DNA from: a virus
Lineage: Duplodnaviria; Caudoviricetes
IMG/VR virus record: IMGVR_UViG_3300028887_000078
Direction: 5' to 3' (one strand)
DNA length: 64,000 nt
In this document: positions 1,072 to 54,243 of the stretch, in pieces
Position numbering within the stretch: the first letter of the stretch is position 1
Layout: each line of letters starts with the position of its first letter
The notes under the pieces: model-generated
What the model saw: only the letters and a program-made list of their open reading frames with translations
The model's database searches: none
What the model was told of the DNA's origin: nothing
Program-made: the position numbers and the translations under genes

Positions 1072-1213
1072 TGTCCTGAACGCTGTGAAGGCGAAACAGC
1101 GGGAAGATGAAATATCGGAACACGGAAAGTTGATTTCGCTTGCAAAAGTAGTCAGGTCGAAGAAGGTCTATACGAGGAAAAAGAAACACAAGAAGCAAAA
1201 TGAAAACGGGTGA
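1034..1213 (+). CDS. small basic protein, ArfA-like alternative ribosome-rescue factor candidate (59 aa, not in ORF track)
   Basis: GTG at 1034 to TGA 1211-1213 gives MKGKRKKRNIVIDVLNAVKAKQREDEISEHGKLISLAKVVRSKKVYTRKKKHKKQNENG; the tail SKKVYTRKKKH resembles the ArfA KGSYxRKxKH tail. Confidence 0.5.
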   Translation: MKGKRKKRNIVIDVLNAVKAKQREDEISEHGKLISLAKVVRSKKVYTRKKKHKKQNENG

Positions 1214-1238
1214 TATATCATTGATATATCGCCCGTTT
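1204..1238. terminator. long hairpin containing the TGATATATCA double palindrome and overlapping the stop codon of 1034..1213
   Basis: aaacgggtgatatatca-t-tgatatatcgcccgttt, between convergent transcription units. Confidence 0.6.
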
Positions 1239-1281
1239 CTGTCAAAAAAAAACGGAAATATCCACTTTAGTCTTGTAAAGA

Positions 1282-1310
1282 AAAATGCAGGTGAATTTCA
1301 CCTGCATTTT
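1282..1310. terminator. intrinsic terminator hairpin, GCAGGTGAA..TTCACCTGC family
   Basis: aaaatgcaggtgaa-t-ttcacctgcatttt downstream of gene 1331..1942; related hairpins at 41216 and 48080. Confidence 0.7.
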
Positions 1311-1330: not shown

Positions 1331-1942
1331 TCAAGCAATTTCCAAGTCGTTTTTGAGTTTTTGAATAAACGCGTCAAATTCTTTTCCGAACTCTTTGACA
1401 AGTTCAATGAACTCGTCCCCGCTCATTGTTGCACTCTCGTCCCAATAAATTGCCTTGTCAGTCAAATCCACCATAAGTTCGCCCTTTCCATTATAAGAAG
1501 CGTAATGACATTTGAAAAATTTACTCAAACCGTAGAGAATGTGTTTATCGCTCAAATCATAGTTGAACAAAAGTGTGGAATACAAAGTATGCCCTACCGC
1601 GTAAGAAGGAACTTCAACAGTCAGTGTAATGTATTTGTTTCCATCTTTGGTGTAAACACTAAACAGCACGCGTTTGTCATCGTATTTTTGAAAGTTAATA
1701 TACAAAATTGACTTATTGGACGCAATCTCTATGTCGTTTGTCGAAAATCTTGAAGATTCCGCTCTTGACATATTCGACATTGCTTCTGATATTTTCCAAA
1801 TATCGTCGCTGTGTGCAAGTATGCCATTGCAAATGTCGGCGAGTTTCCCTTCAAATTTATGTTCCTCATAACTTGATTGTGACATCATTGACGATTCATT
1901 TACATTTTTGTGCATTTCGTCAATTCTCTTAATGTGTGTCAT
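1331..1942 (-). CDS. hypothetical protein with capsid-targeting-like N-terminus (cassette passenger)
   Basis: N-terminus MTHIKRIDEMHKNVNES; late promoter TATAAATA at 1965-1972 (-). Confidence 0.7.
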   Translation of the reverse strand: MTHIKRIDEMHKNVNESSMMSQSSYEEHKFEGKLADICNGILAHSDDIWKISEAMSNMSRAESSRFSTNDIEIASNKSILYINFQKYDDKRVLFSVYTKDGNKYITLTVEVPSYAVGHTLYSTLLFNYDLSDKHILYGLSKFFKCHYASYNGKGELMVDLTDKAIYWDESATMSGDEFIELVKEFGKEFDAFIQKLKNDLEIA

Positions 1943-2044: not shown

Positions 2045-2401
2045 TCAGTTTTTTGCCACAGTCCACGTCTTTCCTTCTTTCACATACAGACCGTTTTCGA
2101 TTGCCTGTCGTGTGAGTTGACCTGCGTATTTGCCGATTTTCTTGAACAGGATTGCAAGTTGTTTTTCGGACAGTTGGTTTCCTTTCAGGACACGCTTGCA
2201 GAATGAGGTGAGGATTTCCGCGTCGGTTCCTGCAAAACCGACACCGTTCAAGGCGCATACGTCGCCGTTGATTTGCTCGTCGACCGTCTGATACTCATAG
2301 ATGCGGAGCATTGCCTTGACTGCCTGCGATTCTTTTGATGTGATTTGTTCGCGGATTGCGTTTTCGATTTGTTTCTTTGATGTAAATTCTCTCTTTTCCA
2401 T
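2045..2401 (-). CDS. conserved hypothetical phage protein
   Basis: 118 aa; YQTxDEQ..NGVGF..DAEILTSF..LSEKQ pattern; promoter motif at 2426-2436. Confidence 0.7.
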   Translation of the reverse strand: MEKREFTSKKQIENAIREQITSKESQAVKAMLRIYEYQTVDEQINGDVCALNGVGFAGTDAEILTSFCKRVLKGNQLSEKQLAILFKKIGKYAGQLTRQAIENGLYVKEGKTWTVAKN

Positions 2402-2455
2402 ATTGCTTTGTTTTTGTTCCCTTTATTGAATATAATAAAAAATCTCTAATTGCGG

Positions 2456-2902
2456 TCAATCGTCAATCGTGCTTTCGCACCAATCGTCGTCGTGCCATTC
2501 CTGTTCTTTTCGCAAAAGTGCGTCTGTCAGTGAATTGACGTGTCTTTTCCATCCCATTCGGTCAATATAGTAACCGTCGCCCAAGTATTTGAGGCAACCG
2601 CCGTCGAAATTGTAGTTCGGCGCCTGTTGGACTGCGCCTTCGGAGACGCATCCATTCACATAACCTTTGGTATATCCGCGTTCAAGTCGTTCCGGGTGTG
2701 CAATGTTGTATTTGCGGTAATATCCTTTTTTGTGTCTGTCGGATTTTCCGTTCCAAAACGTGTCTTTGCAATGCCCGCAGCAGAATGCCTGCTGCCATTG
2801 TATTTTTGTGAATTGTTTCCCGCAAATAGGGCAGGTGATGGTTTCGCCTACTTTTGCCGCTTTGTTTGCTTCGTATGCGAGTTGTCTTTTTGATTTCTTC
2901 AT
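2456..2902 (-). CDS. hypothetical Zn-finger-like early protein
   Basis: CPICGKQF..FCCGHC; Bacteroidota-type promoter upstream. Confidence 0.65.
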   Translation of the reverse strand: MKKSKRQLAYEANKAAKVGETITCPICGKQFTKIQWQQAFCCGHCKDTFWNGKSDRHKKGYYRKYNIAHPERLERGYTKGYVNGCVSEGAVQQAPNYNFDGGCLKYLGDGYYIDRMGWKRHVNSLTDALLRKEQEWHDDDWCESTIDD

Positions 2903-2924
2903 ATCTTTGTTTTTGATTTCGTTG

Positions 2925-2932
2925 CAAAAATA
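2925..2932 (-). promoter_or_regulatory. Bacteroidota sigma-A -7 element TAnnTTTG
   Basis: TATTTTTG followed by CAAC on the minus strand, about 20 nt upstream of the ATG at 2902. Confidence 0.65.
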
Positions 2933-2995
2933 TATAAAATCACAATATGCTCGGAAAAAATTTTTTGCTTTTTTTCAACAGAGTTATCAACAGCA

Positions 2996-3003
2996 TATAA
3001 ATA
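2996..3003 (+). promoter_or_regulatory. T4-type late promoter TATAAATA (representative copy)
   Basis: Other copies upstream of genes at 6181, 8996, 33133, 37110, 37156, 43134, 45540, 54202, 59842 (+) and 1965, 8974, 26611, 37074, 43090, 54154 (-). Confidence 0.8.
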
Positions 3004-3025
3004 ACCGAAATTGTATGTTGTGTAT

Positions 3026-3601
3026 ATGAAGATACTTTCGATAAATGAGTTTGCGTCTGCTGATAAAAACGGCAGAATTGTCCTGTATCACGGCACGAAG
3101 TCCGCGTTCGACCGTTTCGACAGGCAGTTTGTCAATAGCGGGTGGGGCGAGCAGGCGTACGGCTACGGCTTCTACTTCACGGACGACTACGAGTGCGCGA
3201 GCCAGTACAGCCGCAACGGGAGTGTCATCCGCGTTTCCGTCCCTTCGGGGAAGTACCTTTCGTACAAGGGCATATCCCGCGCGGAGGCGATGGCAATCGC
3301 CCGCAAGTTCTTCAAGTATTACACGGAGGTTGATGACTACGGCAGGGACGCATATCCAGATGCGGAGTCGAGGCACGAGTTCTGGGACGGGGAGTGCAAG
3401 TACCTTGCCGACAGCGAGGACGGTGGTGACATATACGGCACTATCGCTTCTATGGTAGGGAGTGATGAGGAGACGAGTTCGTTTCTCCGTTCGCTTGGCT
3501 ATGTCGGAATAAAATTCCCTGCGTACGACGGAAGCACTGGGCGGAAGTTCACCAACTATGTAATATTCGATGAAAAGGACATTGAGATAATAAATGATTA
3601 G
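3026..3601 (+). CDS. ADP-ribosyltransferase-fold protein (ART-PolyVal-like) with capsid-targeting-like leader
   Basis: LYHGT..FDRFD..GEQAYGYGFYFT..A..Y and TNYVIFD motifs; N-terminus MKILSINEF; start moved to ATG 3026. Confidence 0.7.
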   Translation: MKILSINEFASADKNGRIVLYHGTKSAFDRFDRQFVNSGWGEQAYGYGFYFTDDYECASQYSRNGSVIRVSVPSGKYLSYKGISRAEAMAIARKFFKYYTEVDDYGRDAYPDAESRHEFWDGECKYLADSEDGGDIYGTIASMVGSDEETSSFLRSLGYVGIKFPAYDGSTGRKFTNYVIFDEKDIEIIND

Positions 3602-3605
3602 TTGT

Positions 3606-3890
3606 ATGGTACATATAAGAATGATTGACGAGATGTTCACACAGCACGGAATATGGTTTGGTTTTATAGACATAATATAGGTGTGGGACGCACCGAATCA
3701 AAGCGTGTGGAGATGCGAGAAAAGATTATGAACGCTATAAAGCATTCAAAACAAACAGCAACGTTGAATCACGAAGCCGACACACTTTAGAGTGGCGGTA
3801 GTTCATATCGGTCTCACTTTCAGCAAGGACGGAAAATGTAAAGTGACCAACTACCTGATATTTGACGGCGGTGACATCACGGTTCTTTGA
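3606..3890 (+). pseudogene. remnant of a second ART paralog disrupted by an IS200/IS605 element and a deletion
   Basis: 5' part MVHIRMIDEM (3606-3635); 3' part 3807-3890 IGLTFSKDGKCKVTNYLIFDGGDITVL* matches the C-terminus of 3026..3601 (VGIKF..KFTNYVIFDEKDIEII). Confidence 0.7.
3630..3806 (+). mobile_element. IS200/IS605 right-end relic (tnpB 3' end / omegaRNA scaffold region)
   Basis: Encodes DVHTARNMVWF..GVGRTE, like a TnpB C-terminus; ends with gaagccgacacactttagagtggcggtagttcat, a typical IS605 right end. Confidence 0.7.
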
Positions 3891-3978
3891 TTTGCAGTCA
3901 CGATGAAAAAGCGGACAAAATTTGCCCCCTTTGTTATTTTTCCCGATTTTTTTGTTATATTGAAGAAAGAGGAAAGTA

Positions 3979-4689
3979 ATGGACATTTATTACAAGCAGT
4001 ATCTTGAATATCCTGTCAAAATACCTGGCGACGCATTCATAACCGACAAAGAGGGGTTGGAACCGATAAAGGCGGTTCCCGACTTCCCTGTTTCATATTG
4101 TTGGGAGGTTCAGATTATCCACAAGATTATCGCGAACGAAGAAGGTTTCTTTGATTTCAGCAAAGGAATGGTCGATATAGGTGCTGGGTTCGGTGAATAC
4201 AGTTGGTTGCTGCCGTTCAAATTCTCGCACGCATTTGAACCTTGCAGGCAGGCGTTGTATCTTATGCACACCAATCTCGTCACGCACGAGAGACTGTACC
4301 ATACAACAACCTATGAGTGCGGATTGAGCGACAAGTTTGAAACGGTTATGTTCGACGGGTTCAACGCAGACGCAGGAAATGCAATCGCGTATGATTCCTC
4401 GAAGGCGGTTTCTATGGAAGTGAAAACGCTCGACTCATTCGGGTTCGACAATATCGGTTTCATAAAGATTGACATTGAGGGTATGGAGGAAAAGGCGCTT
4501 CGCGGAGGTGTTGAGACCATAAAGAGGAACGGGTACCCGCCGATATTGTTCGAGTGCTGGCCAGTTGGATACAACACAATGACACAGGAAAAACACGATT
4601 CGTTATATGGGTTTCTAAACGGACTCGGATATTCCATAATTGATAATTGGGGTGACTATGAAACGCACCTCGCAGTTTATACTTGTTGA
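3979..4689 (+). CDS. FkbM-family SAM-dependent methyltransferase
   Basis: VDIGAGFGEYS, AFEP, TLDSF, IKIDIEGMEEKALRG, PPILFE motifs. Confidence 0.85.
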   Translation: MDIYYKQYLEYPVKIPGDAFITDKEGLEPIKAVPDFPVSYCWEVQIIHKIIANEEGFFDFSKGMVDIGAGFGEYSWLLPFKFSHAFEPCRQALYLMHTNLVTHERLYHTTTYECGLSDKFETVMFDGFNADAGNAIAYDSSKAVSMEVKTLDSFGFDNIGFIKIDIEGMEEKALRGGVETIKRNGYPPILFECWPVGYNTMTQEKHDSLYGFLNGLGYSIIDNWGDYETHLAVYTC

Positions 4690-7983: not shown

Positions 7984-8574
7984 TCACTTCTTTTTCATAT
8001 CTTCAATGAATTTCGCCTGCGCGTCCTTTATCGTGCCGTTTGTGAACCAATCGTCCTCTGAAATGAGCATATAGTGTATCTTGTTCCAATTCACGCATCG
8101 GCAGTCGGAAATGTATTGGAGTGAATATGCGTGCATACAGGAGGTTATGTTCATATTGAACGGCGACTTTTTGATAAACTCGGTTCCAAGTTCAATGATG
8201 AAAGGTTGTTCAAGCGAGTCCTCATCGTTTGGGAACTTTCCGATTCCGCCTTGTATGGTGTCGGCGAATATATCATAGATATATCGGAATATTTGCAGGC
8301 GTATGGGAAATGGAATCCAGTGCATATCTATGCCGAAGAATTTGTCCTTCTGTTTTTTGGATTGACCGAGCGACATTATGAAAGGTTTTGTGTCGTACAT
8401 TTTCTCACTGTCGGAATTGTAGTCGAACACATACAGTTTGGCAGGGTACAGGATACTTTTTTCAACAGGCATTGTCTTGAGGTTTTCCAAGAAGTCATAG
8501 TTTGCCCGTTTCACGCCTCCGCGACCGCGTTGGAGTTGTTCAACAGATGTGTCTATGTCATAGAATAGTTTCAT
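7984..8574 (-). CDS. DNA end protector-like protein (T4 gp2-like)
   Basis: PAKLYVFDY..YDTKPFI..FFGIDMHWIP..RLQ pattern; structural gene context. Confidence 0.55.
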   Translation of the reverse strand: MKLFYDIDTSVEQLQRGRGGVKRANYDFLENLKTMPVEKSILYPAKLYVFDYNSDSEKMYDTKPFIMSLGQSKKQKDKFFGIDMHWIPFPIRLQIFRYIYDIFADTIQGGIGKFPNDEDSLEQPFIIELGTEFIKKSPFNMNITSCMHAYSLQYISDCRCVNWNKIHYMLISEDDWFTNGTIKDAQAKFIEDMKKK

Positions 8575-19190: not shown

Positions 19191-19211
19191 TGATATATCA
19201 ATGATATATCA
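19191..19211. promoter_or_regulatory. TGATATATCA-N-TGATATATCA double palindrome (representative of six intergenic copies)
   Basis: Copies at 1211, 19191, 24704, 26616, 37085, 54165. Confidence 0.8.
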
Positions 19212-19216
19212 AAAAA

Positions 19217-19244
19217 GGAGTGTGGGGACTACGCCCCACACTCC
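19217..19244 (-). terminator. intrinsic terminator
   Basis: ggagtgtgggg-actacg-ccccacactcc hairpin with an A-run on the left, between convergent genes. Confidence 0.75.
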
Positions 19245-21128: not shown

Positions 21129-21254
21129 ATCTTTGTTGTTTCCTTTCCTATTTGAATATAATACAAAAAAATCATTTTTTCATTTTTTTGAAAAAAAAAG
21201 TTGATTTTTTTCACCTGTTTCCATATATAAATATATTGGTAATATATCTTTGAA

Positions 21255-21845: not shown

Positions 21846-21870
21846 CCATTATATTCAATAAAAAGTCGTT

Positions 21871-33051: not shown

Positions 33052-33056
33052 CAGTT

Positions 33057-34529: not shown

Positions 34530-34597
34530 TTTGGGTGGTTGAATGATTGTTGCGCAGATTTGATTTTTTCCATTATATTCAATAAAAACAAACTGCT

Positions 34598-37052: not shown

Positions 37053-37119
37053 ATTGGATAAATTTATTCAATATATTTATATGAATATATCATTGATATA
37101 TCGCTTTGCTATAAATAAT

Positions 37120-38403
37120 CGGAATTATCCCTTTAGTCTTGTAAAATGTGAGTAATATAAATATAGTATAGTATTTCAATCAGATGGAGAGGACGTACAC
37201 ATATAAGTTCAGGTTATATCCGAACAAAGAACAAGAGATTTATCTCGTCAATGTGTTTGGATGTTGCAGGCTTGTATATAACCATTTCCTCAATGAAAAG
37301 AAAACCCAATACAATGAATCCAAAACAAGTGATTCGTACAATGTTCAATCAGGTAAATTAACTGAACTTCGTAAAACGAATGAATTTGAGTTCTTGAATG
37401 CTGTTCCTTTGCAGGTATTACAATGCAGTTTGAGGAATATGCACAATGCTTATGACAACTTCTACAAACACAAAAGTTCCTATCCGAAGTTCAAGAACAG
37501 AAGGAACAAACAGTCGTTTAAGTTACCACAAGAACAGTGTTTTAGAATAAAAGATAACAAACTTTACATTCCTAAACTAAAAAGCGGAATTGACATTGTA
37601 ATGGAACGTAAGATTATAGGCAAAATATGCTTTGCCACAATCTCAAAGAATAAGGCGGGCAAATACCACATAGCAATTACTGTTAAACAGGATTACATAC
37701 CTTATGGAAAGACCAACCGTTCTGTCGGTCTTGACCTCGGCATAAAGGATTTCGTCATCACAAGTGACGGGGTTAAATACAAGAACCATAGAAGTATAAT
37801 AAGGACATTAAAACGTAAACTAAAACATAACCAAAGACATCTGTCAAGGAAAGTTTATGGTAGCAAGCGATACGAAAACCAAGTGTTGAAATGCAACCGA
37901 ATCTATCAGAAGATAACAGATGCCAAAACTGACTACATTCATAAGATAACCACAGAACTTGTCAGACACTACGATGTGATAAAGGTTGAAGACCTAAACA
38001 TTAAAGGGATGATGAAGAACCACAAGTTGGCAGAGGCAATATCAGAATGTAATTGGTATCAGTTCATTCAAACTCTTGAATATAAGTGTTTGTGGAATGA
38101 AAAAGAACTTATAAAGATTGACCGTTTCTATCCGTCAAGTCAGATGTGCAGTGAATGTGGTTATGTTGAAAAAAAAGTCAGAAACCTAAATGTGAGGGAA
38201 TGGACTTGCTGTAACTGCGGTTGTCATCACGACCGTGATGTAAATGCAGCAAGAAACATTTTGAAATATAATTCGGCAAGGAATGTCGAAAACAGTCGTG
38301 GAGTTGTATGCAAACTGAATGAAAGAACCAAATCAGTTGGTGATTGTTCGGACAACTGTGAAGCGATTATTGAACTTTTACAAGACTAAAAGGGATAATT
38401 CCG
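37120..38403 (+). mobile_element. non-autonomous TIR cassette carrying tnpB
   Basis: TIRs 37120-37144 and 38378-38403 (differ by one T indel); flanking direct repeats taaataat (37112-37119) and taaataaa (38404-38411); same TIR as 1253..2005. Confidence 0.85.
37184..38389 (+). CDS. tnpB: TnpB RNA-guided endonuclease
   Basis: YKFRLYPNKEQ, GLDLG, VEDL, CSECG..CCNCG, DRDVNAARNI; stop codon lies inside the right TIR. Confidence 0.95.
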   Translation: MERTYTYKFRLYPNKEQEIYLVNVFGCCRLVYNHFLNEKKTQYNESKTSDSYNVQSGKLTELRKTNEFEFLNAVPLQVLQCSLRNMHNAYDNFYKHKSSYPKFKNRRNKQSFKLPQEQCFRIKDNKLYIPKLKSGIDIVMERKIIGKICFATISKNKAGKYHIAITVKQDYIPYGKTNRSVGLDLGIKDFVITSDGVKYKNHRSIIRTLKRKLKHNQRHLSRKVYGSKRYENQVLKCNRIYQKITDAKTDYIHKITTELVRHYDVIKVEDLNIKGMMKNHKLAEAISECNWYQFIQTLEYKCLWNEKELIKIDRFYPSSQMCSECGYVEKKVRNLNVREWTCCNCGCHHDRDVNAARNILKYNSARNVENSRGVVCKLNERTKSVGDCSDNCEAIIELLQD

Positions 38404-38429
38404 TAAATAAATATAGCAAAGATTTGATT

Positions 38430-40010
38430 ATGCAACCGACGAAACCTACAGAGAACGGGGTCAAGTACCTTCAATTAACGGACAGCATATTGATGGAATA
38501 TGTGTATGTCTGTGACAGATATGTGTCCAACAGCGGAACGGATTTGGACGGAGACACGCTTGCCGTCGATGAAAACGGCGACTTTATGAACACCTATGGA
38601 CACAGTCCTGTTTCCACATACCGAATCGCAAAGAACGAGTATGTGGACGAATTGTACTTTATGAACGATGAGTTGTCATCGGCACTTACAAACAACAGTA
38701 TGCGGAACACAGTCCTGCCTGTGAGGAAAGACCAAACCAAATGGGTCGCCACCAACAGGGTGAACGGGAAGTATTATTCCAAATACGACACGAAATGGGC
38801 GGACATAGACCCAATTTCAGGTGAAATGAGCATCAACAGGATACCTACCGCGCCGTACGGCGAGTATGTCCCGTATGACATAGTGAGATTCTATTTCCAA
38901 AGTGGGTACCATTCCGAATACGACGGGTTCATATTCAACTTGTACACGAGAAACAGGAACAACGAGTATGTTAACCTTCTCTGTGCTATGCACGAGAACT
39001 ATGGGAACTTCAGGATGCTGTCCGAACCGTTTTGGTTTGCCGACAAACTTTATACAAACTACATAGAGTACAGGGTTCCTTCCACTGCATATCTGTCGTC
39101 CGACGCAATCGGTGGCAACACGCCTTCTATGGAAATGAACAGATGGGGCGGAAGCGGAAATTACGACAAGACGAACCCCGACCCTGAAACACTGCCGTAT
39201 TTTCTTACACACAGCATAGGGTTCTACAACAACCCTGCAATAGGAATTGACCTGCACGCGGTCACAGGTTATGAGATGGACAGGGGGTTCAGGGTTTACA
39301 AGTCTCTTATGCTGACCTCGACGCTGTTTCCCAACAAGGACTCCTATGAAAGACTGATGGCGGTTGCAAGACCCGCGTCCGACGGGGACTACTACAAACT
39401 CTATGCCTATTATGAGAACGACCTGTCGAATCCTATTTACGATGAAATGTCCCTTTATGAATATCTGAAACAATACAGGAACACCTTCACGGTCGTGCAT
39501 ATCATAACTGTCAGCGAAACCTACACGGATGACGCTAACAACACCGTGACCGACACCCAGCCGCCTATGACGTACATACAGTCTTGGGAAAACCTTGAGA
39601 GTATGTACGAGGCGAATGAATCGCCTGAAATCCTTTTCCGACCTGTCCTGAAACACACTTCAAGGATGCTCTCCGACGGGGACGGTGCAAGGATAAGGTA
39701 TGTGGTGCGAATAACCAACGACAGGGACAACACCACGATTATCAAGAACACATCCTGTTCAATCATAAGACCAAGAAGGTTCGGTTTGAATATGGTTAAC
39801 GCAAACATAAACTCTATGAATGATGTGCGGGTTTACAACCGTGTGGAAAGCGGTCCAGTCCTGAACGTGACCACAGTCACCCGCCCGCTCGGTTCTGTTT
39901 CGTCGGAACAGGCGCCTGTGCAGGTGAACACCTATGTGACATCTTCGTTCATAGACAGGAGAAACATAAAAATACGGGTGTCCCCCGTTAGAATAGAGGA
40001 GGTTGAATAA
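38430..40010 (+). CDS. putative virion structural protein
   Basis: Start reassigned to ATG 38430; Tyr/Asn-rich; late-promoter context. Confidence 0.55.
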   Translation: MQPTKPTENGVKYLQLTDSILMEYVYVCDRYVSNSGTDLDGDTLAVDENGDFMNTYGHSPVSTYRIAKNEYVDELYFMNDELSSALTNNSMRNTVLPVRKDQTKWVATNRVNGKYYSKYDTKWADIDPISGEMSINRIPTAPYGEYVPYDIVRFYFQSGYHSEYDGFIFNLYTRNRNNEYVNLLCAMHENYGNFRMLSEPFWFADKLYTNYIEYRVPSTAYLSSDAIGGNTPSMEMNRWGGSGNYDKTNPDPETLPYFLTHSIGFYNNPAIGIDLHAVTGYEMDRGFRVYKSLMLTSTLFPNKDSYERLMAVARPASDGDYYKLYAYYENDLSNPIYDEMSLYEYLKQYRNTFTVVHIITVSETYTDDANNTVTDTQPPMTYIQSWENLESMYEANESPEILFRPVLKHTSRMLSDGDGARIRYVVRITNDRDNTTIIKNTSCSIIRPRRFGLNMVNANINSMNDVRVYNRVESGPVLNVTTVTRPLGSVSSEQAPVQVNTYVTSSFIDRRNIKIRVSPVRIEEVE

Positions 40011-40011
40011 T

Positions 40012-41211
40012 ATGAACGCATCGAAATACAGTGTGCTTTCAAGCACGAGAATATCTTTCAGGTTGCATTTCAACCTGAACAAGGAATGCTCGGAACCGAA
40101 AGAGCCGTTTGAACTTTCAAGTGACGATTTCTGCGACTGCATAACCACGCCTTTCGCAAATTATGCGAATGCCAAAATAATGCTCGCGGAGGCGCTGAAA
40201 TACATAAAGGGCAACGGGAGTACGGACACGAACTGTTCTGCCGAAATTCGCCTCGAAATGGAGCGGAAATTGTGCCCTGTCTACAGGATGAACGTCTGCA
40301 AGTTTATACTTTCATTCGATGAGGATTGTGCATACAGACTTTTTCCTGAACGCAAGGGTGTTGTCGGTGCGATGAGCATCAGGCGTGCGCTCGATGTGTG
40401 CGATGTCCCCGACGGTATGAGTTTCTATGACAGGTGCTGCGACAAGAATGTCCTTTCAGGAAACCTGTACGGGATTGACCTTTCCGATATGGATGAAAAC
40501 ACCATATCAATACGTTATTGCGGAGGAAGGGGTTATGAGGACAAATATATGGAGTTGTCCGCATTTATAGACCACTGTATAACGAATGTCTATGCAATCG
40601 TTTCGGAACCCGCGTACAGTGTGGGTGAGATTGACGAACTGCGTGACATAACCGAACGGAGAAAATCGTTCTCCGAAGCGTTTGTTGAGTATGACGCTTT
40701 CAAAAAGATGTTCCCGAAGGTGAATGTGCTTGTCGACCTTTACGACATAAAGGGTATGGAGAGCGTGTATTGGTCTCTGATAAGGGACAGAGTCCGCGAC
40801 ATTATGGTTCAGATACAGGCGGACAAAAAGACTTCCCTCACCATCAACTACGACACGGATTGCAGTGTGCTCCAACTGAAGAACTGTGAAGTGAAATATG
40901 CCGCAGGACTCATCGGCGTCGATATGATTGACTGCGAGGTTTCCGGACTTGTTTCGAGTTGCTCTATGTATACTTGCGACGTGAAGGACGCGGTGCTCAA
41001 TTTCTGCACCTGTTTCAGTAACACCCACATAGAGGGGAGTTATGTTTCCGACACCTATCTGTCGGACGGCACGAAATGCACCGATTGCAGGATATTCGGC
41101 GATTCGACGATAAGCGGCACATACGAGAAATGCAAACTTGGAGACGGTGTGAAGTATATGAAGCACACAAAGTTCAAGCATACACCGAAAGGAAATGCGG
41201 TTGAAATATAA
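40012..41211 (+). CDS. degenerate amidoligase-like protein with beta-helix-like C-terminus
   Basis: CITTP..Y..AK..L..I..NG.TD.NCS and IRYCGG.GYEDK resemble phage amidoligase-2 motifs with catalytic positions altered. Confidence 0.45.
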   Translation: MNASKYSVLSSTRISFRLHFNLNKECSEPKEPFELSSDDFCDCITTPFANYANAKIMLAEALKYIKGNGSTDTNCSAEIRLEMERKLCPVYRMNVCKFILSFDEDCAYRLFPERKGVVGAMSIRRALDVCDVPDGMSFYDRCCDKNVLSGNLYGIDLSDMDENTISIRYCGGRGYEDKYMELSAFIDHCITNVYAIVSEPAYSVGEIDELRDITERRKSFSEAFVEYDAFKKMFPKVNVLVDLYDIKGMESVYWSLIRDRVRDIMVQIQADKKTSLTINYDTDCSVLQLKNCEVKYAAGLIGVDMIDCEVSGLVSSCSMYTCDVKDAVLNFCTCFSNTHIEGSYVSDTYLSDGTKCTDCRIFGDSTISGTYEKCKLGDGVKYMKHTKFKHTPKGNAVEI

Positions 41212-41215
41212 GAAA

Positions 41216-41242
41216 AAAACGCAGGTCATTCGCCTGCGTTTT
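41216..41242. terminator. bidirectional terminator hairpin overlapping the phoH stop
   Basis: aaaacgcaggt-cattc-gcctgcgtttt. Confidence 0.7.
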
Positions 41243-41918
41243 CCTTTTTTGTCTTTTTCTCTTTTGTCTCCTTGTGTCGTTTGGCGTATTCGTCAATCAG
41301 GGAGTCCACTATTTTGTGCCTGTGGTTCTCTTTGAGTTCTATTGAGACCATCCCGTCAACTCTTTCCGCACAAGAGGCAATGAACGCGAACCCGCTATCG
41401 TTCTTGTGCTTCAGGTCGATTTGTGATATGTCCCCGCAGATTATCATTCTTGAGCCGATACCGAGTCGTGTTACAATCATCTCCATCTGTTCGTCGGTGA
41501 TGTTCTGTGCCTCGTCAACGATGACACAGGCGTCCAAAAATGTTATGCCCCTCATAAACGACACGGGGACGATTTCAAGCGTGCCGTCGTTCAACCATTG
41601 TTCCACCAAAAACCTTCTGTTCTTCCCAAGCAGTGTATAGAAGTTTTGGTAGATGGGTTGAATCCACGGGTCGAGTTTGTCCCTTATGTCGCCTGGCAGG
41701 AAACCGATGTCCTCCTTCGACACCGTTGGTCTCGTGACCACGATTTTGGAAAACTCCTTTTTCATAAGTCCGTCGAGGGCGACCTGACAGGCAAGCAGGG
41801 TTTTCCCCGAACCCGCCTTTCCGTGAAGTACGGTGATTGCATTGGACAGCAACACCTTTTTCGCCGACTTCTGTTCCTCGTTCAGCGAAATGTCGAATTT
41901 GACGTTTTTTTCTGTCAT
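41226..41918 (-). CDS. phoH: PhoH-family ATPase
   Basis: GKAGSGKT, GFLPGD, FMRG.TF, IVDEAQN, TRLG, GD.SQ.D, NHRH. Confidence 0.95.
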   Translation of the reverse strand: MTEKNVKFDISLNEEQKSAKKVLLSNAITVLHGKAGSGKTLLACQVALDGLMKKEFSKIVVTRPTVSKEDIGFLPGDIRDKLDPWIQPIYQNFYTLLGKNRRFLVEQWLNDGTLEIVPVSFMRGITFLDACVIVDEAQNITDEQMEMIVTRLGIGSRMIICGDISQIDLKHKNDSGFAFIASCAERVDGMVSIELKENHRHKIVDSLIDEYAKRHKETKEKKTKKENAGE

Positions 41919-44025: not shown

Positions 44026-44607
44026 ATGAAAATCTTGACATACGAAAGTTTTTCCGCAATCAATGAATCAATCCGCTCGAAGATATTCAAGAACGGAATG
44101 TCCGTAGTGTATTCAAATGACGGCAGCGAGGGTGGTTACAGGCATTATCTCTGCATTACGGAAAAGGACGACATTCTTAAAGTCATAGACGATTTGAAAT
44201 GGGATTCCGATGTCGACGACACGAGAAAACTTGAAATGAAAGATGAAAAATACGGAGTGCTTGTCCATTCGTTTGAAAATGGCGCGGACTGCGTTCTTAT
44301 AAGCGAGGTCATTGTGAACAACATCCTCTACATCTACGACACGAAACTGAAAGTGTCCGACTGCATAAAGGACGGATATATCAAAGATATATCGGACAAA
44401 TGCAACATCGACAACCTTGTCTATGAAAAGGATGTGGACTATTCAAAGATAGTGACTGCGGAACCTGAAGCGCCGTACTTCAACTATGGTTACAGATTCA
44501 ACGATTGGAGCGGAATATCAAGAGGCGACGACACCTATGACATAAACCTCCCGTACGGGGTAAGACGTGGCGTTTCTATGCGTATGCCGAATCCATTGTT
44601 CACATAG
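44026..44607 (+). CDS. hypothetical protein with capsid-targeting-like leader
   Basis: MKILTYESFSAINES. Confidence 0.65.
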   Translation: MKILTYESFSAINESIRSKIFKNGMSVVYSNDGSEGGYRHYLCITEKDDILKVIDDLKWDSDVDDTRKLEMKDEKYGVLVHSFENGADCVLISEVIVNNILYIYDTKLKVSDCIKDGYIKDISDKCNIDNLVYEKDVDYSKIVTAEPEAPYFNYGYRFNDWSGISRGDDTYDINLPYGVRRGVSMRMPNPLFT

Positions 44608-46698: not shown

Positions 46699-47339
46699 CA
46701 TTCGTAGGAATAGACTTTTCATTAAATTCGCCCGGTATGTGCATCGAATATAACGAGCGCATCCGCTTTTTCTCGTTTTTCAACACAGAGGGTTGTGAAT
46801 GGGACAGACCAAACCCGTTGAAGAAATTTGCACACCACAACGCGATAAAGGATTTTGTTACAATGGTTCCATACACAAGGACAAAGACGGACAAGAACAC
46901 TCCCTATGCGGAAGAACAGTCTGCAAAAATGAAGGACGCCGTTATGATTGCGGACATCATCACTTCCACGATACAGAACAACGTCATAGGAGAGGTGATG
47001 TTTTCGCTTGAGGGGTTTGCCTATCAGAGTTCAGGCGCGTCGTTCATTGACCTCATCCTGTTCAATTCATTTCTCCGAAAGGAGATTGTGCAGCAATGGG
47101 GGTATGACAGGTTGGTCATAGTGGCGCCGTCCGCGGCAAAGAAACTTGCAGGAAAGGGAAATGCAGACAAGGAATATATGATTGGGGCGTTCAAGAACAA
47201 CAAACTGAACGACGCAAAACTTTCGGACACAGGACTGTTCCGATATATTCAAGATATATCGGACTTCAAAAATGTGAAACCGATTGACGACATCGTTGAC
47301 AGTTATTTCATTATGAAAGCACAAAACATACAGAGATGA
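46695..47339 (+). CDS. RuvC-like Holliday junction resolvase
   Basis: VGIDFSLNSPG, LEGFAY, PSAAKKLAGKGNADK, DDIVDSYF. Confidence 0.8.
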   Translation: MTFVGIDFSLNSPGMCIEYNERIRFFSFFNTEGCEWDRPNPLKKFAHHNAIKDFVTMVPYTRTKTDKNTPYAEEQSAKMKDAVMIADIITSTIQNNVIGEVMFSLEGFAYQSSGASFIDLILFNSFLRKEIVQQWGYDRLVIVAPSAAKKLAGKGNADKEYMIGAFKNNKLNDAKLSDTGLFRYIQDISDFKNVKPIDDIVDSYFIMKAQNIQR

Positions 47340-48191: not shown

Positions 48192-51100
48192 TTATGATTT
48201 TAATTTGAGATTTCTTATTGCTTCAGCAAACTCATTCACCGCTTTTTGGAACGCATTGGCGTCGAGTTCCGCTTTCACAGTTTGTGGTCTTTGCGGTTGC
48301 GGTGTAGGAGTCGGTGTGTTCTGTTTTCCAAATAGACCTGTTTTACCGCTTCCGTTTCCGCCTGTTTTACCGCTTCCGTTTCCGCCTGTTCCACCGCTTC
48401 CTCCGCCATTTCCGTTGCTGTTGATGGTTTCAACGATTTCCTCTATGGTTTTCTTTATGTCTTCAAGTGCCTTCGTTGTCTTTGCATTGTCAGCGCTCAC
48501 GAGTTCCCCGAACCCAGCAATCATATCCGCATAGGGTTTCATTATGTCGTTGTTGATGCTGTTGATTGCGTTTGCTATCTTCTGCGTGTTGGAACTGATG
48601 TTGTCGAACACCTTTTCCTTGACTGCGTTCCTCAACGAATCCACGAACTTCTGCGACTTGTCGATATTGTTTCCTGCGCCTGCGAGTTTGTTCATACCTG
48701 TCACGAGTTGGTTCGTGAAGTCGGTGAAGTTCCTGCCGTTGGCGCTTTTTATGTTTGCCGCGGTGTCCGACATATTCTTCACTTTCGTAAGTACCGATGC
48801 GTATTTGTCGGCGATTCCCTTTGACTTGTCGAGGTCGCTTGTCTTGAATGATTTCAGTGTGTATTCAATAGGTTTACTTTTGCTGTAGAAGGTGTACTTG
48901 GTGTCATTTTCCCTTTCAACGAATGTCGTCGCCATTGTCATAATGTTGACTACGGGCTCGAACACGTTCGTCGGGTTTTTTGCAATGTAGTTGAGCGATG
49001 ACTGCTCGGCTGCGAGAGACTTGACGGATTCGCTCACCCCCTTCGCCGCTTTTTTGACGCCTTCCATAACCTTGTCCCATTGCGGTTCGTCGCTGTTTGG
49101 CCAATAAAGCAAACGTCGCAACTGTCCCACTTTTCCGAACTTCGCGGTTGCTTCAGGATAACCGAGTTCTGCTGGTATGAGGTCGAATGATTTTTGCGTA
49201 CCGTCGCTTGTCACGGATGCACCTATCTGTGCGAATGCCGTGAGGGACAACGCTATGGACTGCACGAGTTTCGCGGTGACGTCTATGATTTTGTCGGGTT
49301 TCGCTATTTTGCCCAATGCCTCGAACCCTTCCGCGATGCCTGAAATGATGTCGCCTATTCCCGTCGCCGCGTCGACCGCCATACCGAAATAGGTCTTGCT
49401 CGGCGTTTTCTTCGTCGAGGAACTCGTCGACACACCCGCTCCCCAAAGTTTGACTTCCGCCTTTGACTCGGACTTGGTTTCAATGTCGTACAGCACGCCG
49501 CCGTTCTTTAGCGATTCGCCGAGTTGCCAAAATACAGAGATTGCGCCGCAGGTGAGCATCTGCATATTCCTGACCATTCCGCTTCCGCCGTCCACACCCC
49601 AATCCTTGTTGATTTTGCCTGGTTCCCCTATGTTCTCGATTATTTTCTTGTCGGAAAGCGCCTTCACAATCGCCGCCATACCCTCCATCATCTTGCCGAT
49701 GTTGCCCACGCTTTCAAGCGCTCTCGCCACATCTGTCTTGTGGGTGTTGTAGTTTACGGTTTGTTCAGACGCTTCGTGGACTGCGACCATACCTGCGCCG
49801 ATTTTGCTCGCCCGTGTTTTCGCCTGACCGAGTTTTACATCTATGGACTCGTCGACCGTTCCGAATTTTATAAGCGGTTCCTGTATGCCCGTCAGCAATG
49901 TCGCGACGCCGTTGGCGACGTCGGTAATCCAAGTGTTGTCCTTTGAGTTCACCAAATCCTTGAACTCCTTCATACCGCTCGCTATGTCCTTCAGTGCGTT
50001 GCCGATTCCCTTCACGCTCTTTATTCCCTCCTGAACCGCGTTTTTGCCGCCGACGAAGAATTTGAACAGGTCGCTGTATTTTCTCCCAGATTCCGTTTCA
50101 AGTTTTTCAATCTCCTTGCCCAGCCAAGCGTCGCCAATCATCTTGAACGCGCTTGACACGGAAGTGACGGTTTCCACGACGGCATCCGTGAACTCCTTCA
50201 TATAGGTCGTGCTCTTGAACTTCGTCCCGTAGGTGTCGTAGAACTCCGTAAGACCTTTTGCGATTTCCTTCAGGGCGGTTCCCATTTTCCTCGCTTCAAC
50301 AGCGCCTTTCGCCGCGTCGCTCGGAGTGTATGCCGCCATCGTTCTTCCAAACCATCCTTTCTCAACATCTTCCTTGCCCTTGTTGTTTCCGCCGAGTATG
50401 GAGAATATGTCCCTGACAGCGATGAGGACGGTCGATATTTCGGTTATTTTCGTTATGTCTATGTCGCTGTTCGTCCATTCCTGCATACCTTTCGCGAGGC
50501 GCTTGATTGTTATGCCCGCGGTGGTCATAGCGGACGCGGTCACCTGCATCTGCGCCAAGTTGAACGGGGCGAACATAGACGACGTCATTTTTCCCGCGAA
50601 GCGTTTCAGGAACCCTTTGGTTTCGGTTTCGTCTCCTTTCGGTGTGCCTTGGAAGGCAAGTTTTATCCTGTCTATGGAAAGGCAGAGTATGTCGAGTTTC
50701 TTTTCGTCGATGTTCACGCCGTTCCAATTCTGCAACGCGCGTCCAAGAGACGACAGCGCTCCGCTTATTATCGCTATCGCGGTCGCGGAAGTCGTTATCG
50801 GCGCGAGCTCGAATGCCCCCGTGATTGCTCCGGAGATGGCGCTTCCTATCTTTTTGAAAAACCCCTTTACCCCGCCTCCGCTGTCATCGCCTTTCGGTTT
50901 GCCCATAAACGCGAGTTTCAGTCTGTCTATCGAGATGCAGATGAGGTCGAGTTGGTTTTTGTCGATGTTCGCTTTCGACCATTCTTGCAATGCGAGTCCG
51001 AGTCTTTTCAATGCTCCCGCTATCGTGAAGATTGCCACCGCTCCTATTCCTATTGGAATTGCAAGCGGTGCGAGCAGGGAGAACTCAAGTCCGAATATGC

Positions 51101-54100
51101 CGATTATCCCTGCCATCTTGCCGATGTCCTTCCAATTCATTTTCTGTATCGGTTCCACAAACTTTCCGACGCCATATCCGAACGGGATAAGCGCCGCGCC
51201 CATCACCGCAAATGCGACATCCGCCATCACGATTGCGGGGGCAAGCGGTCCGAGCAATGCGAACTCCGCCCCGAATATGCCAATCAACGCCGCCATCATT
51301 CCGACTTTTTTCCAAGAACCGACCTTGTCAATCTCGGTTGCGTATTTTCCGACGCCGAAACCGAATGAAATGAGTCCAACTCCCATTGCCGCGACCGCAG
51401 CGGAACCAAGTGCGACAAACATCGCCACGGCAGGTATACCGAGCAATGCGAACTCAACTCCGAAAATACCAATCAATGCCGCCATCATACCCACCTGTTT
51501 CCAACCGATGTCCTTTATGGCGTCCACATAGAACTTGACGCCGAACCCGAATATGCCGAGTCCGACCGCCATAGCAGCGATGACAACTGTTCCCTTCAGG
51601 ATGTCCATAGTAAATTTTCCTGCGATAACGAACTCAAGCACGAATATGCCGAGCAACACGGGCATCATAATCAGCGTCCCGGTCTTTACTCCGTCAATCG
51701 CCTTCGTGTAGAAACCGAGTCCAAAACCGAACAATCCGAGTGCAACCGCCATACCTGCGACCGCGCCTGAACCTTTCAGGATGTTCTTCGGATTGTCGCC
51801 TTTTCCCGCCTTGTTGAATATGAACAGAAGCGATGCGAGCAGCAGAGGCATTCCGATAAGTGATTTTGCACTTGCCCCCTCAACGGTCTTGAGCGGGGGT
51901 ATCAATGCGAAACCGAATATCGCGAGCGCAGCGGACATACCGACAACAGCGCCTGCACCTTTCAGTATCTTTTTCATATTGTCGTTCTCGCCGCCCTTCT
52001 TGAATATCCACATACTTCCGTACAGGAGTCCGAACACGGCGACGGTCTTTATCAGACCCATCCAGTCCATCTTCCCGTCCTTCGTCTTCCACATTGTGCC
52101 TACGATGGCGTTTGAAATCCACAATGCGGCGGAGAATATGACGAGTCCGAGCGACATAGCGGCAATCGCGCCGAAACCTGCGAACGCCTTTCTCACATTC
52201 TCCTGTGTCCCTATTCTCTTGTAAACCCAAAGGCTTCCGAGCATAAGTCCGAACACCGCCAAGTCCATAACCGCCGCTTTTACGTCGACACCGCTTTTCC
52301 AATTTCCGACGATATTCTTCATAATTTGGTGGGTAATCCACAGGGCGCCGGAAAATGCGACAAGTCCGAGTGACATAACCAATATGGACATACCCGCGCC
52401 CATAACCTTGCGCACGTTGTCTTCCTTTCCGATTCTTCTGAACAGGTAGTATGAACCGAGCATAAGTCCGAACACCGCGACGTCGCCGACTATCGCCCAC
52501 GGGTCTGCACCGCCTTTCCAATTCTGTACAATCTGTTTGGTCAGTATGTGCGTCACGAAGAGCGCAACGCTGAACGAAAGTATGGCGGCGCTCATAAGCA
52601 GCGTCGAAACAGCGCCCCTGCGCACCTTGTCGCTTGAACGTTTGTCTCCGAGTTTGCCGAAGAACTTGTACGAACCGTACATCAATGCGAACACCCCGAC
52701 CGAAGCGGCGATTGAGGCGATGTTAGTCCAATCTATCTTGTCGGTGCCGCCCGTGATGATGTATCTTGTTATCATCGTGGTGGCGAGTATCGTCAGGGTG
52801 AACGTGATTATGGAGGTGGAAATCAGGAGGATGTTGTACACCCCGCTTCTGATGTCAATGGAGTTTTTCTTGTTTCCGATGTTCTTGAACAGCATATTCG
52901 CCCCTTTCAGGACAATCGCGGTCAGTCCCATTCCCACAAGAGCGGGAACGGCGAGTATTGAGTTCAATGCCATAGCAGCGTTGAACCAAAGCATAGATTT
53001 TCCAATCAGTTCAAGGTTGAGCGCCGCGGTGACGTATTTTTTGGTAGCGGTCATTTTCGACAGCGGTTTCAATGCCCATCTCGCCTCCCTTATGACGAGG
53101 GCGGACAGAAGCATACCCACCATAGCGACGGGCGCGACTACGGCGACGAGCGCCATTCTCGCCGTGAACTTGAGAAGCGAGGTCGCTATCTTGTCGAGCG
53201 TCTGCACGGCAATCAATGTCTTTGCGATGTTCTTCGCATTTTCAAGCGGTTTTATCGCGTCGAGCGTCCCCTTGATTATCTTCTTCGCCGCTTTCGCTCC
53301 GAGTTTCGCGGGGAGTGCAAACATAGCGACACCTGCAAGCGATTCCGACAAGTCGAATATATCCCGCGATATTTTCTCCATCGACTTGACGCCAACCTCA
53401 TATTTTTTCATTTTGGCGGGCGTCATAGATTTTTCGTGCTTGTTCACCGTGTTGAAGAACGCGTCGAATATGCCGCCGATTTTCACTTGCAGCAACAGGG
53501 ACTTCGCAAGGGATATTTTGTCCATCTTGACGGCGGCGTCCGCCATCGCGCTCACTATCTCGCCGACGTTCTTTCCGCCTTTGACTTCAGGTATCTTGAC
53601 TTTCTTCGCCGCTTTCTCCTCTTTCGACTCGAAGAGTTTGCGCATAAGCGACCCTCCGCTTTCCTTGCCTTTGATTCCTTTCTTCGCGAGTTTTTTCGTG
53701 TTGGAAGCAATCTTTATCAGTTCGAGGTTTGATAGTTTTAGGGCGGAGCGTATTGAAGCGGTGACCTTTGTGAGATTGATGATGCTTGCACCGACATTCG
53801 AGAGTCCCGCACCTACGGAACCTCCAAGACCGACTGTCGAGGCGGTGGATTGGGACATACTGTCCTTTATCGTGTCCGACATCTTGTCAATCGACTTGTT
53901 GAGGTCTTTTACCGAATTGACCGTGGCGTCCTTCACCTCCGTGGTGGCGTTGCTGATTATGCTCGCGGCGTCGGACAACGACGAAGCGCAACCGATAATC
54001 GCGTTGTTTATTGAAACGAGATTTCCGTTGATTGCATTGCCTTGCGATTCCATACAGGTCTGTATGGACTGCATCGGTGTGAACAAATCTCCTATTGTCG

Positions 54101-54113
54101 CTGGTTTTCCCAA
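48192..54113 (-). CDS. tape-measure-like protein with multiple hydrophobic repeats
   Basis: 1973 aa, Ala/Gly/Lys-rich helical with repeated hydrophobic segments; late promoter at 54154; TTG start uncertain. Confidence 0.7.
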   Translation of the reverse strand: MGKPATIGDLFTPMQSIQTCMESQGNAINGNLVSINNAIIGCASSLSDAASIISNATTEVKDATVNSVKDLNKSIDKMSDTIKDSMSQSTASTVGLGGSVGAGLSNVGASIINLTKVTASIRSALKLSNLELIKIASNTKKLAKKGIKGKESGGSLMRKLFESKEEKAAKKVKIPEVKGGKNVGEIVSAMADAAVKMDKISLAKSLLLQVKIGGIFDAFFNTVNKHEKSMTPAKMKKYEVGVKSMEKISRDIFDLSESLAGVAMFALPAKLGAKAAKKIIKGTLDAIKPLENAKNIAKTLIAVQTLDKIATSLLKFTARMALVAVVAPVAMVGMLLSALVIREARWALKPLSKMTATKKYVTAALNLELIGKSMLWFNAAMALNSILAVPALVGMGLTAIVLKGANMLFKNIGNKKNSIDIRSGVYNILLISTSIITFTLTILATTMITRYIITGGTDKIDWTNIASIAASVGVFALMYGSYKFFGKLGDKRSSDKVRRGAVSTLLMSAAILSFSVALFVTHILTKQIVQNWKGGADPWAIVGDVAVFGLMLGSYYLFRRIGKEDNVRKVMGAGMSILVMSLGLVAFSGALWITHQIMKNIVGNWKSGVDVKAAVMDLAVFGLMLGSLWVYKRIGTQENVRKAFAGFGAIAAMSLGLVIFSAALWISNAIVGTMWKTKDGKMDWMGLIKTVAVFGLLYGSMWIFKKGGENDNMKKILKGAGAVVGMSAALAIFGFALIPPLKTVEGASAKSLIGMPLLLASLLFIFNKAGKGDNPKNILKGSGAVAGMAVALGLFGFGLGFYTKAIDGVKTGTLIMMPVLLGIFVLEFVIAGKFTMDILKGTVVIAAMAVGLGIFGFGVKFYVDAIKDIGWKQVGMMAALIGIFGVEFALLGIPAVAMFVALGSAAVAAMGVGLISFGFGVGKYATEIDKVGSWKKVGMMAALIGIFGAEFALLGPLAPAIVMADVAFAVMGAALIPFGYGVGKFVEPIQKMNWKDIGKMAGIIGIFGLEFSLLAPLAIPIGIGAVAIFTIAGALKRLGLALQEWSKANIDKNQLDLICISIDRLKLAFMGKPKGDDSGGGVKGFFKKIGSAISGAITGAFELAPITTSATAIAIISGALSSLGRALQNWNGVNIDEKKLDILCLSIDRIKLAFQGTPKGDETETKGFLKRFAGKMTSSMFAPFNLAQMQVTASAMTTAGITIKRLAKGMQEWTNSDIDITKITEISTVLIAVRDIFSILGGNNKGKEDVEKGWFGRTMAAYTPSDAAKGAVEARKMGTALKEIAKGLTEFYDTYGTKFKSTTYMKEFTDAVVETVTSVSSAFKMIGDAWLGKEIEKLETESGRKYSDLFKFFVGGKNAVQEGIKSVKGIGNALKDIASGMKEFKDLVNSKDNTWITDVANGVATLLTGIQEPLIKFGTVDESIDVKLGQAKTRASKIGAGMVAVHEASEQTVNYNTHKTDVARALESVGNIGKMMEGMAAIVKALSDKKIIENIGEPGKINKDWGVDGGSGMVRNMQMLTCGAISVFWQLGESLKNGGVLYDIETKSESKAEVKLWGAGVSTSSSTKKTPSKTYFGMAVDAATGIGDIISGIAEGFEALGKIAKPDKIIDVTAKLVQSIALSLTAFAQIGASVTSDGTQKSFDLIPAELGYPEATAKFGKVGQLRRLLYWPNSDEPQWDKVMEGVKKAAKGVSESVKSLAAEQSSLNYIAKNPTNVFEPVVNIMTMATTFVERENDTKYTFYSKSKPIEYTLKSFKTSDLDKSKGIADKYASVLTKVKNMSDTAANIKSANGRNFTDFTNQLVTGMNKLAGAGNNIDKSQKFVDSLRNAVKEKVFDNISSNTQKIANAINSINNDIMKPYADMIAGFGELVSADNAKTTKALEDIKKTIEEIVETINSNGNGGGSGGTGGNGSGKTGGNGSGKTGLFGKQNTPTPTPQPQRPQTVKAELDANAFQKAVNEFAEAIRNLKLKS

Positions 54114-54243
54114 AACTCAAAAAACGGACGTGCCGTGAGAATATTCTTCCTATTATTTATAACTTGATATATCAATGATATATTATGAAAAACAGACTTC
54201 GTATAAATAATGAACTAAACCAATTTTCAAATCTGTTACACAA

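Follow-up and report, generated by a model that had tools for sequence, protein, structure and literature searches.

A palindromic motif repeated at even spacing, mostly in the non-coding DNA, of huge T4-related gut/rumen phages

The window analysed here is a stretch of 64,000 nucleotides from the IMG/VR virus record IMGVR_UViG_3300028887_000078. It comes from a very large phage that is related to T4-like phages and belongs to a huge uncultured gut/rumen group, and the GenBank records closest to it, 462-735 kb in size, belong to uncultured huge phages. A simple gene caller that had learned its codon use from the window itself gave 67 genes and 17 strand-switch junctions. The gene products include a baseplate wedge protein, a portal protein, NrdD, RtcB, a CCA-adding enzyme, two TnpB proteins and a collagen-repeat tail fibre of 3382 amino acids (aa). 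Dispersed among and within these genes are copies of a short AT-rich palindrome, referred to below as the motif, which also recurs in two further IMG/VR contigs, G001 (124 kb) and G002. Over the four G002 stretches fetched, G001 and G002 are 100% identical; the sole stretch that the window and G001 share at the DNA level is a TnpB cassette.

The motif and its copies

A logo built on 71 unique sites gives the conserved form of the motif as G-ATATATC-A-W-T-GATATAT-C, a 19-base palindrome. Its invariant part is the 17-bp core ATATATC-N3-GATATAT, that is, two inverted 7-bp arms separated by a 3-bp spacer. Positions that were not fixed by the search are conserved as well, with G/C at ±9 in 89% of the sites, A/T at ±1 in 80% and A/T at the centre in 88%, and the flanks at ±15-17 are A/T-rich. 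The outer G/C turns each half of the motif into an 8-bp palindrome, with a period of 11 bp between the two.

The motif is real and occurs far above chance expectation. The 10-mer TGATATATCA is found 6 times in the window against 0.02 expected, and the 21-mer, allowing up to three mismatches, 7 times against 0.00 expected in shuffled sequences. For the 17-bp core there are nine exact copies, one with one mismatch and three with two mismatches, where the shuffles predict 0.09 for all of these together. Isolated GATATATC units, by comparison, are not enriched (1 against 1.3 expected, and 1 against 2.6 expected), and the functional unit is therefore the pair. Counting exact and one-mismatch copies, the motif is present 10 times in the 64 kb of the window and 21 times in the 124 kb of G001 (18 exact and three one-mismatch), a density of approximately one copy per 6 kb. 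Across the window, G001 and 14 related metagenome loci we found 49 exact, six one-mismatch and nine two-mismatch copies. The copies in the window are listed in Table 1, together with other features discussed below.

Table 1. Motif copies in the window and other features of the phage group. Positions refer to the window unless another sequence is named; a dot marks a feature to which no strand is assigned.
Feature	Position	Strand	Context	Remarks
Motif copy TGATATATCATTGATATATCG	1211-1231	.	Convergent gap between 1034-1213(+) and 1331-1942(-)	GC flanks clamp the motif into a long stem; folds with flanks at -22.8 kcal/mol
Motif copy, exact core	8266-8286	.	Inside gene 7984-8574(-)	Encodes R-Y-I-Y-D-I-F
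Perfect motif copy	19191-19211	.	Convergent gap after the 3382-aa collagen-repeat tail-fibre gene	Separate GC-rich terminator hairpin past the copy, at ~19217-19244
Possible variant ATATATT-GGT-AATATAT	21231-21247	.	Divergent junction	Symmetric two-mismatch, both arms changed; uncertain as a motif copy; the only compensatory variant found
Motif copy	24704-24724	.	Divergent gap between 23724-24656(-) and 24786-25181(+)	TTATATT-type box ~20 nt off on either side
Motif copy	26614-26634	.	Divergent gap between 26158-26580(-) and 26690-27352(+)	
Motif copy, exact core	31296-31316	.	Inside 3' end of gene 30795-31346(+)	Encodes Q-Y-I-G-D-I-S; ~24 nt upstream of the next gene's CCATTATATTCAA box
Motif copy	37083-37103	.	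Divergent gap between 35568-37052(-) and TnpB cassette gene 37184-38389(+)	Flanked on both sides by TATAAATA late-promoter boxes, 1-6 nt away
Motif copy, exact core	44374-44394	.	Inside gene 44026-44607(+)	Encodes G-Y-I-K-D-I-S
Motif copy, one mismatch (C to T, left arm)	47241-47261	.	Inside gene 46737-47339(+)	Encodes R-Y-I-Q-D-I-S
Motif copy	54165-54185	.	Divergent gap between 1960-aa gene 48192-54074(-) and portal gene 54244-55935(+)	TATAAATA boxes at 3 and 16 nt
Cassettes with inverted repeat GGAATTATCCCTTTAGTCTTGTAA	1253-2005; 37121-38400			Also in G001, G003 and G004
CCATTATATTCAA(T/G)AAAA box	493-522; 21845-21870; 24745-24785; 25577-25609; 27758-27785; 31320-31357; 34570-34597			12-25 nt ahead of many start codons
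Early-promoter cassette	~2903-3010	-		Also at 22 places in G003 (L180-L200)
DUF7487 family members	G001 33016-34998, 37967-39910, 39922-41655, 91619-93514; L272 4474-6156			

Placement, spacing and distribution of the copies

The original prediction had described six intergenic copies, all placed where gene orientation flips. All six are present, and with our own gene calls two lie in convergent and four in divergent gaps, with none in the co-directional gaps of the window. Given the share of gap length that strand switches take up, finding six out of six there has a p value of 0.0017 in the window alone. Four further copies, absent from the earlier list, lie inside genes (centres at 8276, 31306, 44384 and 47251), and the placement at strand switches, while true of the six, applies to only 6 of the 10 window copies overall. 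As a genome-wide rule it does not survive. Seventeen of the G001 copies are intergenic, 14 of them in co-directional gaps, one in a divergent and two in convergent gaps, and three more are intragenic; the 3/17 at strand switches give p = 0.99 when scaled to gap length. For the window and G001 together, 9 of 23 intergenic copies are at switches, where 39% of the gap length lies (p = 0.58).

In a pooled set of 52 sites, drawn from the window, G001 and the 14 metagenome loci, a site was found at 11 of 33 convergent junctions (2.7 sites per kb of gap), 5 of 27 divergent junctions (1.0 per kb) and 26 of 316 co-directional junctions (1.25 per kb). The apparent preference for switch points therefore arises mostly because the gaps at switch points are larger. 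What is robust is a preference for non-coding DNA, since 42 of the 52 sites lie at junctions even though 90% of the sequence is coding, the other 10 being intragenic or unassigned. We conclude that the strand-switch link in the window is a local by-product of where the roomy non-coding gaps lie, and the first reading of this locus is corrected accordingly, from a rule to a local pattern.

The spacing of the copies is far more even than chance. In the window the distances between successive copies have a coefficient of variation (CV) of 0.45, with p = 0.009 against uniform placement and p = 0.0002 when copies are assigned at random to gaps of 17 bp or more; for G001 the CV is 0.42 and p < 1e-4. 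No two copies are closer than 1.9 kb, and the longest stretches between copies are those filled by one-mismatch copies, as in G001.

Copies within genes follow a pattern of their own. All four in the window are read in the same frame, Y-I-x-D-I-(S/F), and they arose by changes of codons and residues and not by insertions. Where the genes have orthologues, the encoded peptide is not conserved in G003 or G004, two relatives described below, for two of the three copies, indicating that the proteins were altered to hold the site. At the copy centred on 44384 the G003 orthologue has NTLKDLR, from which it follows that the window protein has changed to accommodate the site, and the peptide at 47251 is likewise not conserved in G003 or G004. 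At 8276 the G003 orthologue has GYIYDLY.

The array is restricted to part of the phage group. It is carried by a lower-GC lineage (JAEEGL contigs) and by Ga0247609 contigs, and it is absent from the close relatives G003 (complete, 413 kb, 79% portal identity), G004 (388 kb) and G005 (192 kb), of which G003 and G005 have no copy and G004 a single one. There is also no copy in G010 (100 kb), two in G009 (79 kb), and in LR756500 (462 kb) no exact copy and two one-mismatch matches. When any repeated exact palindrome with 7-bp arms and a spacer of 0-7 bp was sought in place of this particular sequence, none exceeded five copies in G003 and just a weak AT-rich one was seen in G004. Among bacterial and archaeal genomes (185,579 species in GTDB) there is no array, just 31 scattered single hits, none of them phage-related, and a host factor with genomic sites of its own was rejected on this basis. 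As no cellular genome has more than a single copy, whatever reads the site is more likely to be a phage protein than a host protein. A further set of metagenome matches (L224-L300; Ga0126342 contigs and others) was set aside as unrelated: these are probably eukaryotic, microsatellite-like tandem GATATATCATT runs that happen to match the 19-mer.

What may read the motif

We then compared sites across diverged lineages. At all five testable positions the site is kept at the orthologous junction: the window site at 19201 recurs in metagenome locus L294, that at 26624 in L225 (flanking proteins 32-45% identical), the G001 site at 71207 in L313, and those at 241 and 6744 in L317, where the proteins around 6744 are 42-49% identical. 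Two such junctions were aligned, and at one of them, 19201, the adjacent terminator stem is wholly different in sequence while the motif is letter-perfect. Compensatory change was seen in one of the nine two-mismatch copies. It is the sequence that is conserved rather than a pairing structure. Several divergent copies stand between outward-facing late promoters, 1-16 nt away, and are therefore probably untranscribed. Taken together, the exact sequence at diverged junctions, the scarcity of compensation and the untranscribed copies make it likelier that a symmetric protein recognises double-stranded DNA than that an RNA or DNA hairpin is at work.

The motif does not look like a component of individual promoters or terminators. 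Its position relative to the late TATAAATA box and the recurrent CCATTATATTCAA box varies, being upstream, overlapping, or between box and start codon. Strong hairpins, late boxes and TTATATT boxes are no more frequent in gaps with the motif than in other gaps of that class, and a part in late promoters or terminators was rejected for want of enrichment of either. Folded by itself, the motif reaches only -3.1 to -7.7 kcal/mol, and it lacks a T-run, so that it has neither the stable GC-rich stem nor the U-tract of an intrinsic terminator; several copies are adjoined by separate GC hairpins of approximately -24 kcal/mol. The recurrent box, CCATTATATTCAA(T/G)AAAA, is distinct from the late box and may represent a second class of phage promoter (Table 1).

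The same data bear on whether the motif acts in RNA, as a hairpin that punctuates transcripts through processing, 3'-end stability or weak termination. When folded it would form a stem of 8-9 bp with a 3-nt loop, many copies come straight after a stop codon, convergent gaps are about twice as dense in sites per kb, and three of the six one-mismatch sites have a C-to-T change with which one strand would form G-U pairs, as does the outer-position change at 54175. However, one of these wobble cases is on the wrong strand for its genes, the stem is weak compared with the -23.7 kcal/mol of the terminator beside copy 19201, and that terminator has evolved by structure-preserving change whereas the motif has not. 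The missing U-tract, the conservation of sequence over pairing and the copies that probably go untranscribed also count against it, and even spacing has no rationale at the level of RNA. We therefore consider a role as an RNA hairpin unlikely.

The reading we favour, and to which we would give an even chance, is that a single sequence-specific DNA-binding protein of two-fold symmetry docks at the copies; this putative protein is probably encoded by the phage. The original prediction had offered a binding site for a phage protein that insulates opposed transcription units. A protein-binding site in general fits, given the two-fold symmetry, the exact sequence at orthologous junctions and the single compensatory case; the tie to opposed units was not upheld, since in the relatives most copies occupy co-directional gaps or genes, and terminators and promoters are no commoner in motif gaps than in other gaps. 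The protein might bind as one dimer on the 7-3-7 inverted repeat or, alternatively, as two dimers, one on each of a pair of GATATATC palindromes spaced by 11 bp, which would lie on the same face of the helix. The sites lie in non-coding DNA where this is costless and are elsewhere written into genes in two tolerated reading frames. By its appearance the array would act at the scale of the whole chromosome and not through individual promoters or terminators, and its sites could mark domain boundaries, form symmetric roadblocks or load a protein that spreads. More tentatively, and in our judgement with less than an even chance, a phage protein may read an evenly spaced lattice of one exact palindrome and thereby partition a genome exceeding 300 kb into topological, transcriptional or coating units of about 6 kb each. 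If so, this would be viral chromosome organisation of a kind not described, and would have arisen recently in one sub-lineage of these huge gut/rumen phages.

Several results weigh against a dedicated binding protein. None was found in the families reported for the 104 window and G001 proteins scanned, which represent part of the motif-bearing genome. Pfam searches gave no match for the ten proteins adjoining sites, no DNA-binding domain in the 25 best-represented of the 38 families matched by 46 further window proteins; the 48 lineage-specific proteins of G001 likewise yielded no such domain. ParB_N (PF02195) has no match in G001 or G002, nor in G003, G004, G005 or the reported families of the window proteins scanned. 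The best candidate by guilt of association, the product of 26158-26580, which is lineage-specific and sits by a conserved site, is acidic with a signal peptide and was rejected. In addition, the motif can form a hairpin or cruciform and may thus have a structural role. Two other candidates were dropped: the product of 26690-27352 gave no usable match, and the DUF7487/HNH/Mom endonucleases also occur in G005, which lacks the motif.

Gene order in the group is extremely shuffled, with 17-37% of neighbouring orthologue pairs still adjacent between the window or G001 and G003 or G004, even at 79% portal identity, unlike in classical T4-like phages. This brings us to the idea that the motif is a recombination or cruciform site, at which breakage of copies or exchange between them would invert or rearrange modules or initiate recombination-dependent replication. 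The motif is a perfect AT-rich palindrome, and in comparison with G003 synteny is broken at all 10 motif junctions that have an orthologue on each side. Deletions between repeat copies have been reported in Cluster O phages (PMC4351075), and the PeSL repeats shuffle T4-type genomes (PMC4122927, PMC2839356). Against this, roomy junctions without the motif are also breaks in 21 of 25 cases (84%), conserved order being found at 0/10 motif junctions and 4/25 others (p = 0.30), and the array-less G003 and G004 are equally shuffled, with 17% of adjacencies kept between them. Junctions with sites are conserved among the motif-bearing lineages, and G001 and G002, which come from different samples, are identical and collinear over the fetched G002 stretches, which span six sites. 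Site-specific inversion sites, whether of the hix/gix type or with a tyrosine-recombinase core, have crossover spacers of 2 bp or 6-8 bp. The 3-bp centre of the motif fits the core sites of neither serine nor tyrosine recombinases, and no recombinase was seen in the window besides the two TnpB genes. The earlier suggestion that the motif is an inversion site thus finds no support in its spacer, in the collinearity or in the frequency of breaks, although these tests are weak, and we regard exchange at the motif as improbable. As a driver of genome shuffling it was rejected, because G003 and G004 are just as shuffled without the array and the link to breakpoints is not significant after control for gap size.

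Two copies had been placed within about 25 bp of a terminal inverted repeat (TIR) cassette, and this is borne out, the distance to the cassette inverted repeat being 18-22 bp. By a rough estimate, however, the two of seven cassette ends near a site in the window and G001 do not go beyond the intergenic preference, and a link between motif and cassettes was rejected. The GGAATTATCCCTTTAGTCTTGTAA cassettes occur alike in relatives with and without the motif, and are therefore independent of the palindrome.

It is very unlikely, in our view, that a phage endonuclease or DNA-modifying enzyme targets the motif, an example being the multi-copy DUF7487-HNH-Mom-like homing endonucleases. This family has four paralogues in G001, some of them adjoining sites, and is absent from G003 and G004, but G005 has the family without the array, four genes face about 20 sites in G001, and cutting approximately 50 exact sites in the phage's own genome would demand protection. 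The members are about 600 aa long and combine repeated DUF7487 domains with a Mom-like C-terminal domain, and they match HNH and homing-endonuclease PHROGs. Similarly slight is the chance of a selfish, mobile mini-palindrome of the repetitive extragenic palindromic (REP) type, spread by copy-and-paste with no function for the phage: it is lineage-specific (none in G003, G005, G010 or LR756500, 0-2 copies in G004 and G009) and often occupies very small gaps, as expected of an insertion, yet it is evenly spaced, is exact at orthologous sites whose flanking proteins are 32-49% identical, was made in frame by codon and residue changes, and has no conserved flanks and no identified mobilising enzyme, none having been specifically sought.

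Other features of these genomes were recorded along the way. The 46 window proteins scanned include Pfam matches to a D12-class (Dam/EcoRV-type) adenine methyltransferase, PhoH, Cpn10, ferritin/rubrerythrin, an RF-1 domain (PrfH) and an ADP-ribosyltransferase domain. In the related phage locus L272, the large terminase subunit (2051-4492; 813 aa) has a weak, below-threshold match to the Pfam intein splicing domain. At 114-124 kb in G001, and also in L319 and L324, there are about 20 tandem paralogous genes of about 150 aa each, several beginning M-R-I-S; the G001 array is unmatched in G003 and G004 and encloses one motif copy. The region at ~47-55 kb of G001 is without called protein genes, and the flank of the motif copy at 48573 is tRNA-like by eye, which suggests a tRNA cluster.

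Comparison with known systems

The REP and bacterial interspersed mosaic elements (BIME) are imperfect palindromes of about 35 bp that are strictly extragenic, do not lie between divergent genes and are associated with the RAYT transposase. The motif is 19 bp long and exact, approximately one-fifth of its copies are in genes and five are in divergent gaps, and no Y1 transposase was seen in the Pfam scans of window and lineage-specific G001 proteins. The PeSL cassettes of T4-type phages resemble the motif as repeated intergenic elements with a stem-loop at the module borders of shuffling T4-related genomes (PMC4122927, PMC2839356); a PeSL is, however, a variable stem-loop with an early promoter, whereas the motif is exact, has no fixed partner promoter and is also intragenic. 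The PeSL counterpart in this phage group is not the palindrome but a conserved early-promoter cassette of ~85 nt in G003, comprising GTTGATAAC-N3-GTTGATAAC, T6-CAG-A6, a TTG box and TATTTTTGCAGCG (a Bacteroidetes-type -7 box). The cassette is always oriented with the downstream gene (Table 1), and it is PeSL-like and a candidate substrate for shuffling in this group. Its GTTGATAAC-N3-GTTGATAAC part, upstream of the G003 portal gene, was examined as a homologue of the palindrome with another specificity and rejected, as it is the upstream part of this oriented promoter.

The KorB operators (OB) of plasmid RK2 load a protein that acts at a distance, on promoters up to 1.5 kb away, and the KorB-OB, ParB-parS and Noc-type arrays resemble the present one in being short palindromic sites dispersed over a replicon (PMC11790492). 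KorB-OB is thus an analogue in mechanism. They differ in that the phage array has far more sites, evenly spaced, and that, in the part of the motif-bearing genome covered, no ParB_N domain was found in G001, G002 or the 25 best-represented Pfam families of the scanned window proteins. The stoperators of Cluster A mycobacteriophages are likewise many copies of a short protein-binding site, found mainly in short intergenic gaps, but they are asymmetric and oriented with transcription, which bears on their proposed role in stopping it (PMC4351075). The motif is fully symmetric, and its centre triplet has no consistent orientation in co-directional gaps. Nor is a repressor known for the window phage, and nothing points to a temperate life style.

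Dispersed dyad repeats are on record for a few phages, without a known function or binding protein, and the original prediction knew of no described element matching the motif. An element of the same 7-3-7 design does exist, in the Cluster O mycobacteriophages (Corndog and others), where the 17-bp dyad repeat TGTTCGG-N3-CCGAACA occurs in more than 30 copies, about one-third of them in genes (PMC4351075). The authors of that work inferred a dimeric DNA-binding protein; function and binder are not known there either (PMC4351075). The two repeats share 7-bp inverted arms about a 3-bp centre, tens of copies genome-wide, a placement that is intergenic for about two-thirds or more of copies with the rest within genes, and a centre without orientation relative to transcription. 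Their arm sequences are unrelated, and a mycobacterial siphovirus of ~70 kb stands against a huge T4-related gut/rumen phage. Cluster O copies become denser toward one genome end, whereas the array described here is even, and the outer G/C that gives 8-bp palindromic halves with an 11-bp period sets the present motif apart. On these likenesses of design, the Cluster O repeat is the closest published case, as an analogue and not a relative.

The positions of the present array are conserved across diverged lineages, its spacing is even and it has been imposed on protein sequences, and its array-less close relatives offer a natural contrast in the search for the reader protein. If that protein organises the chromosome, it would represent a new principle for managing very large phage genomes; were it a global regulator, the stoperator idea would be carried over to virulent T4-related phages.

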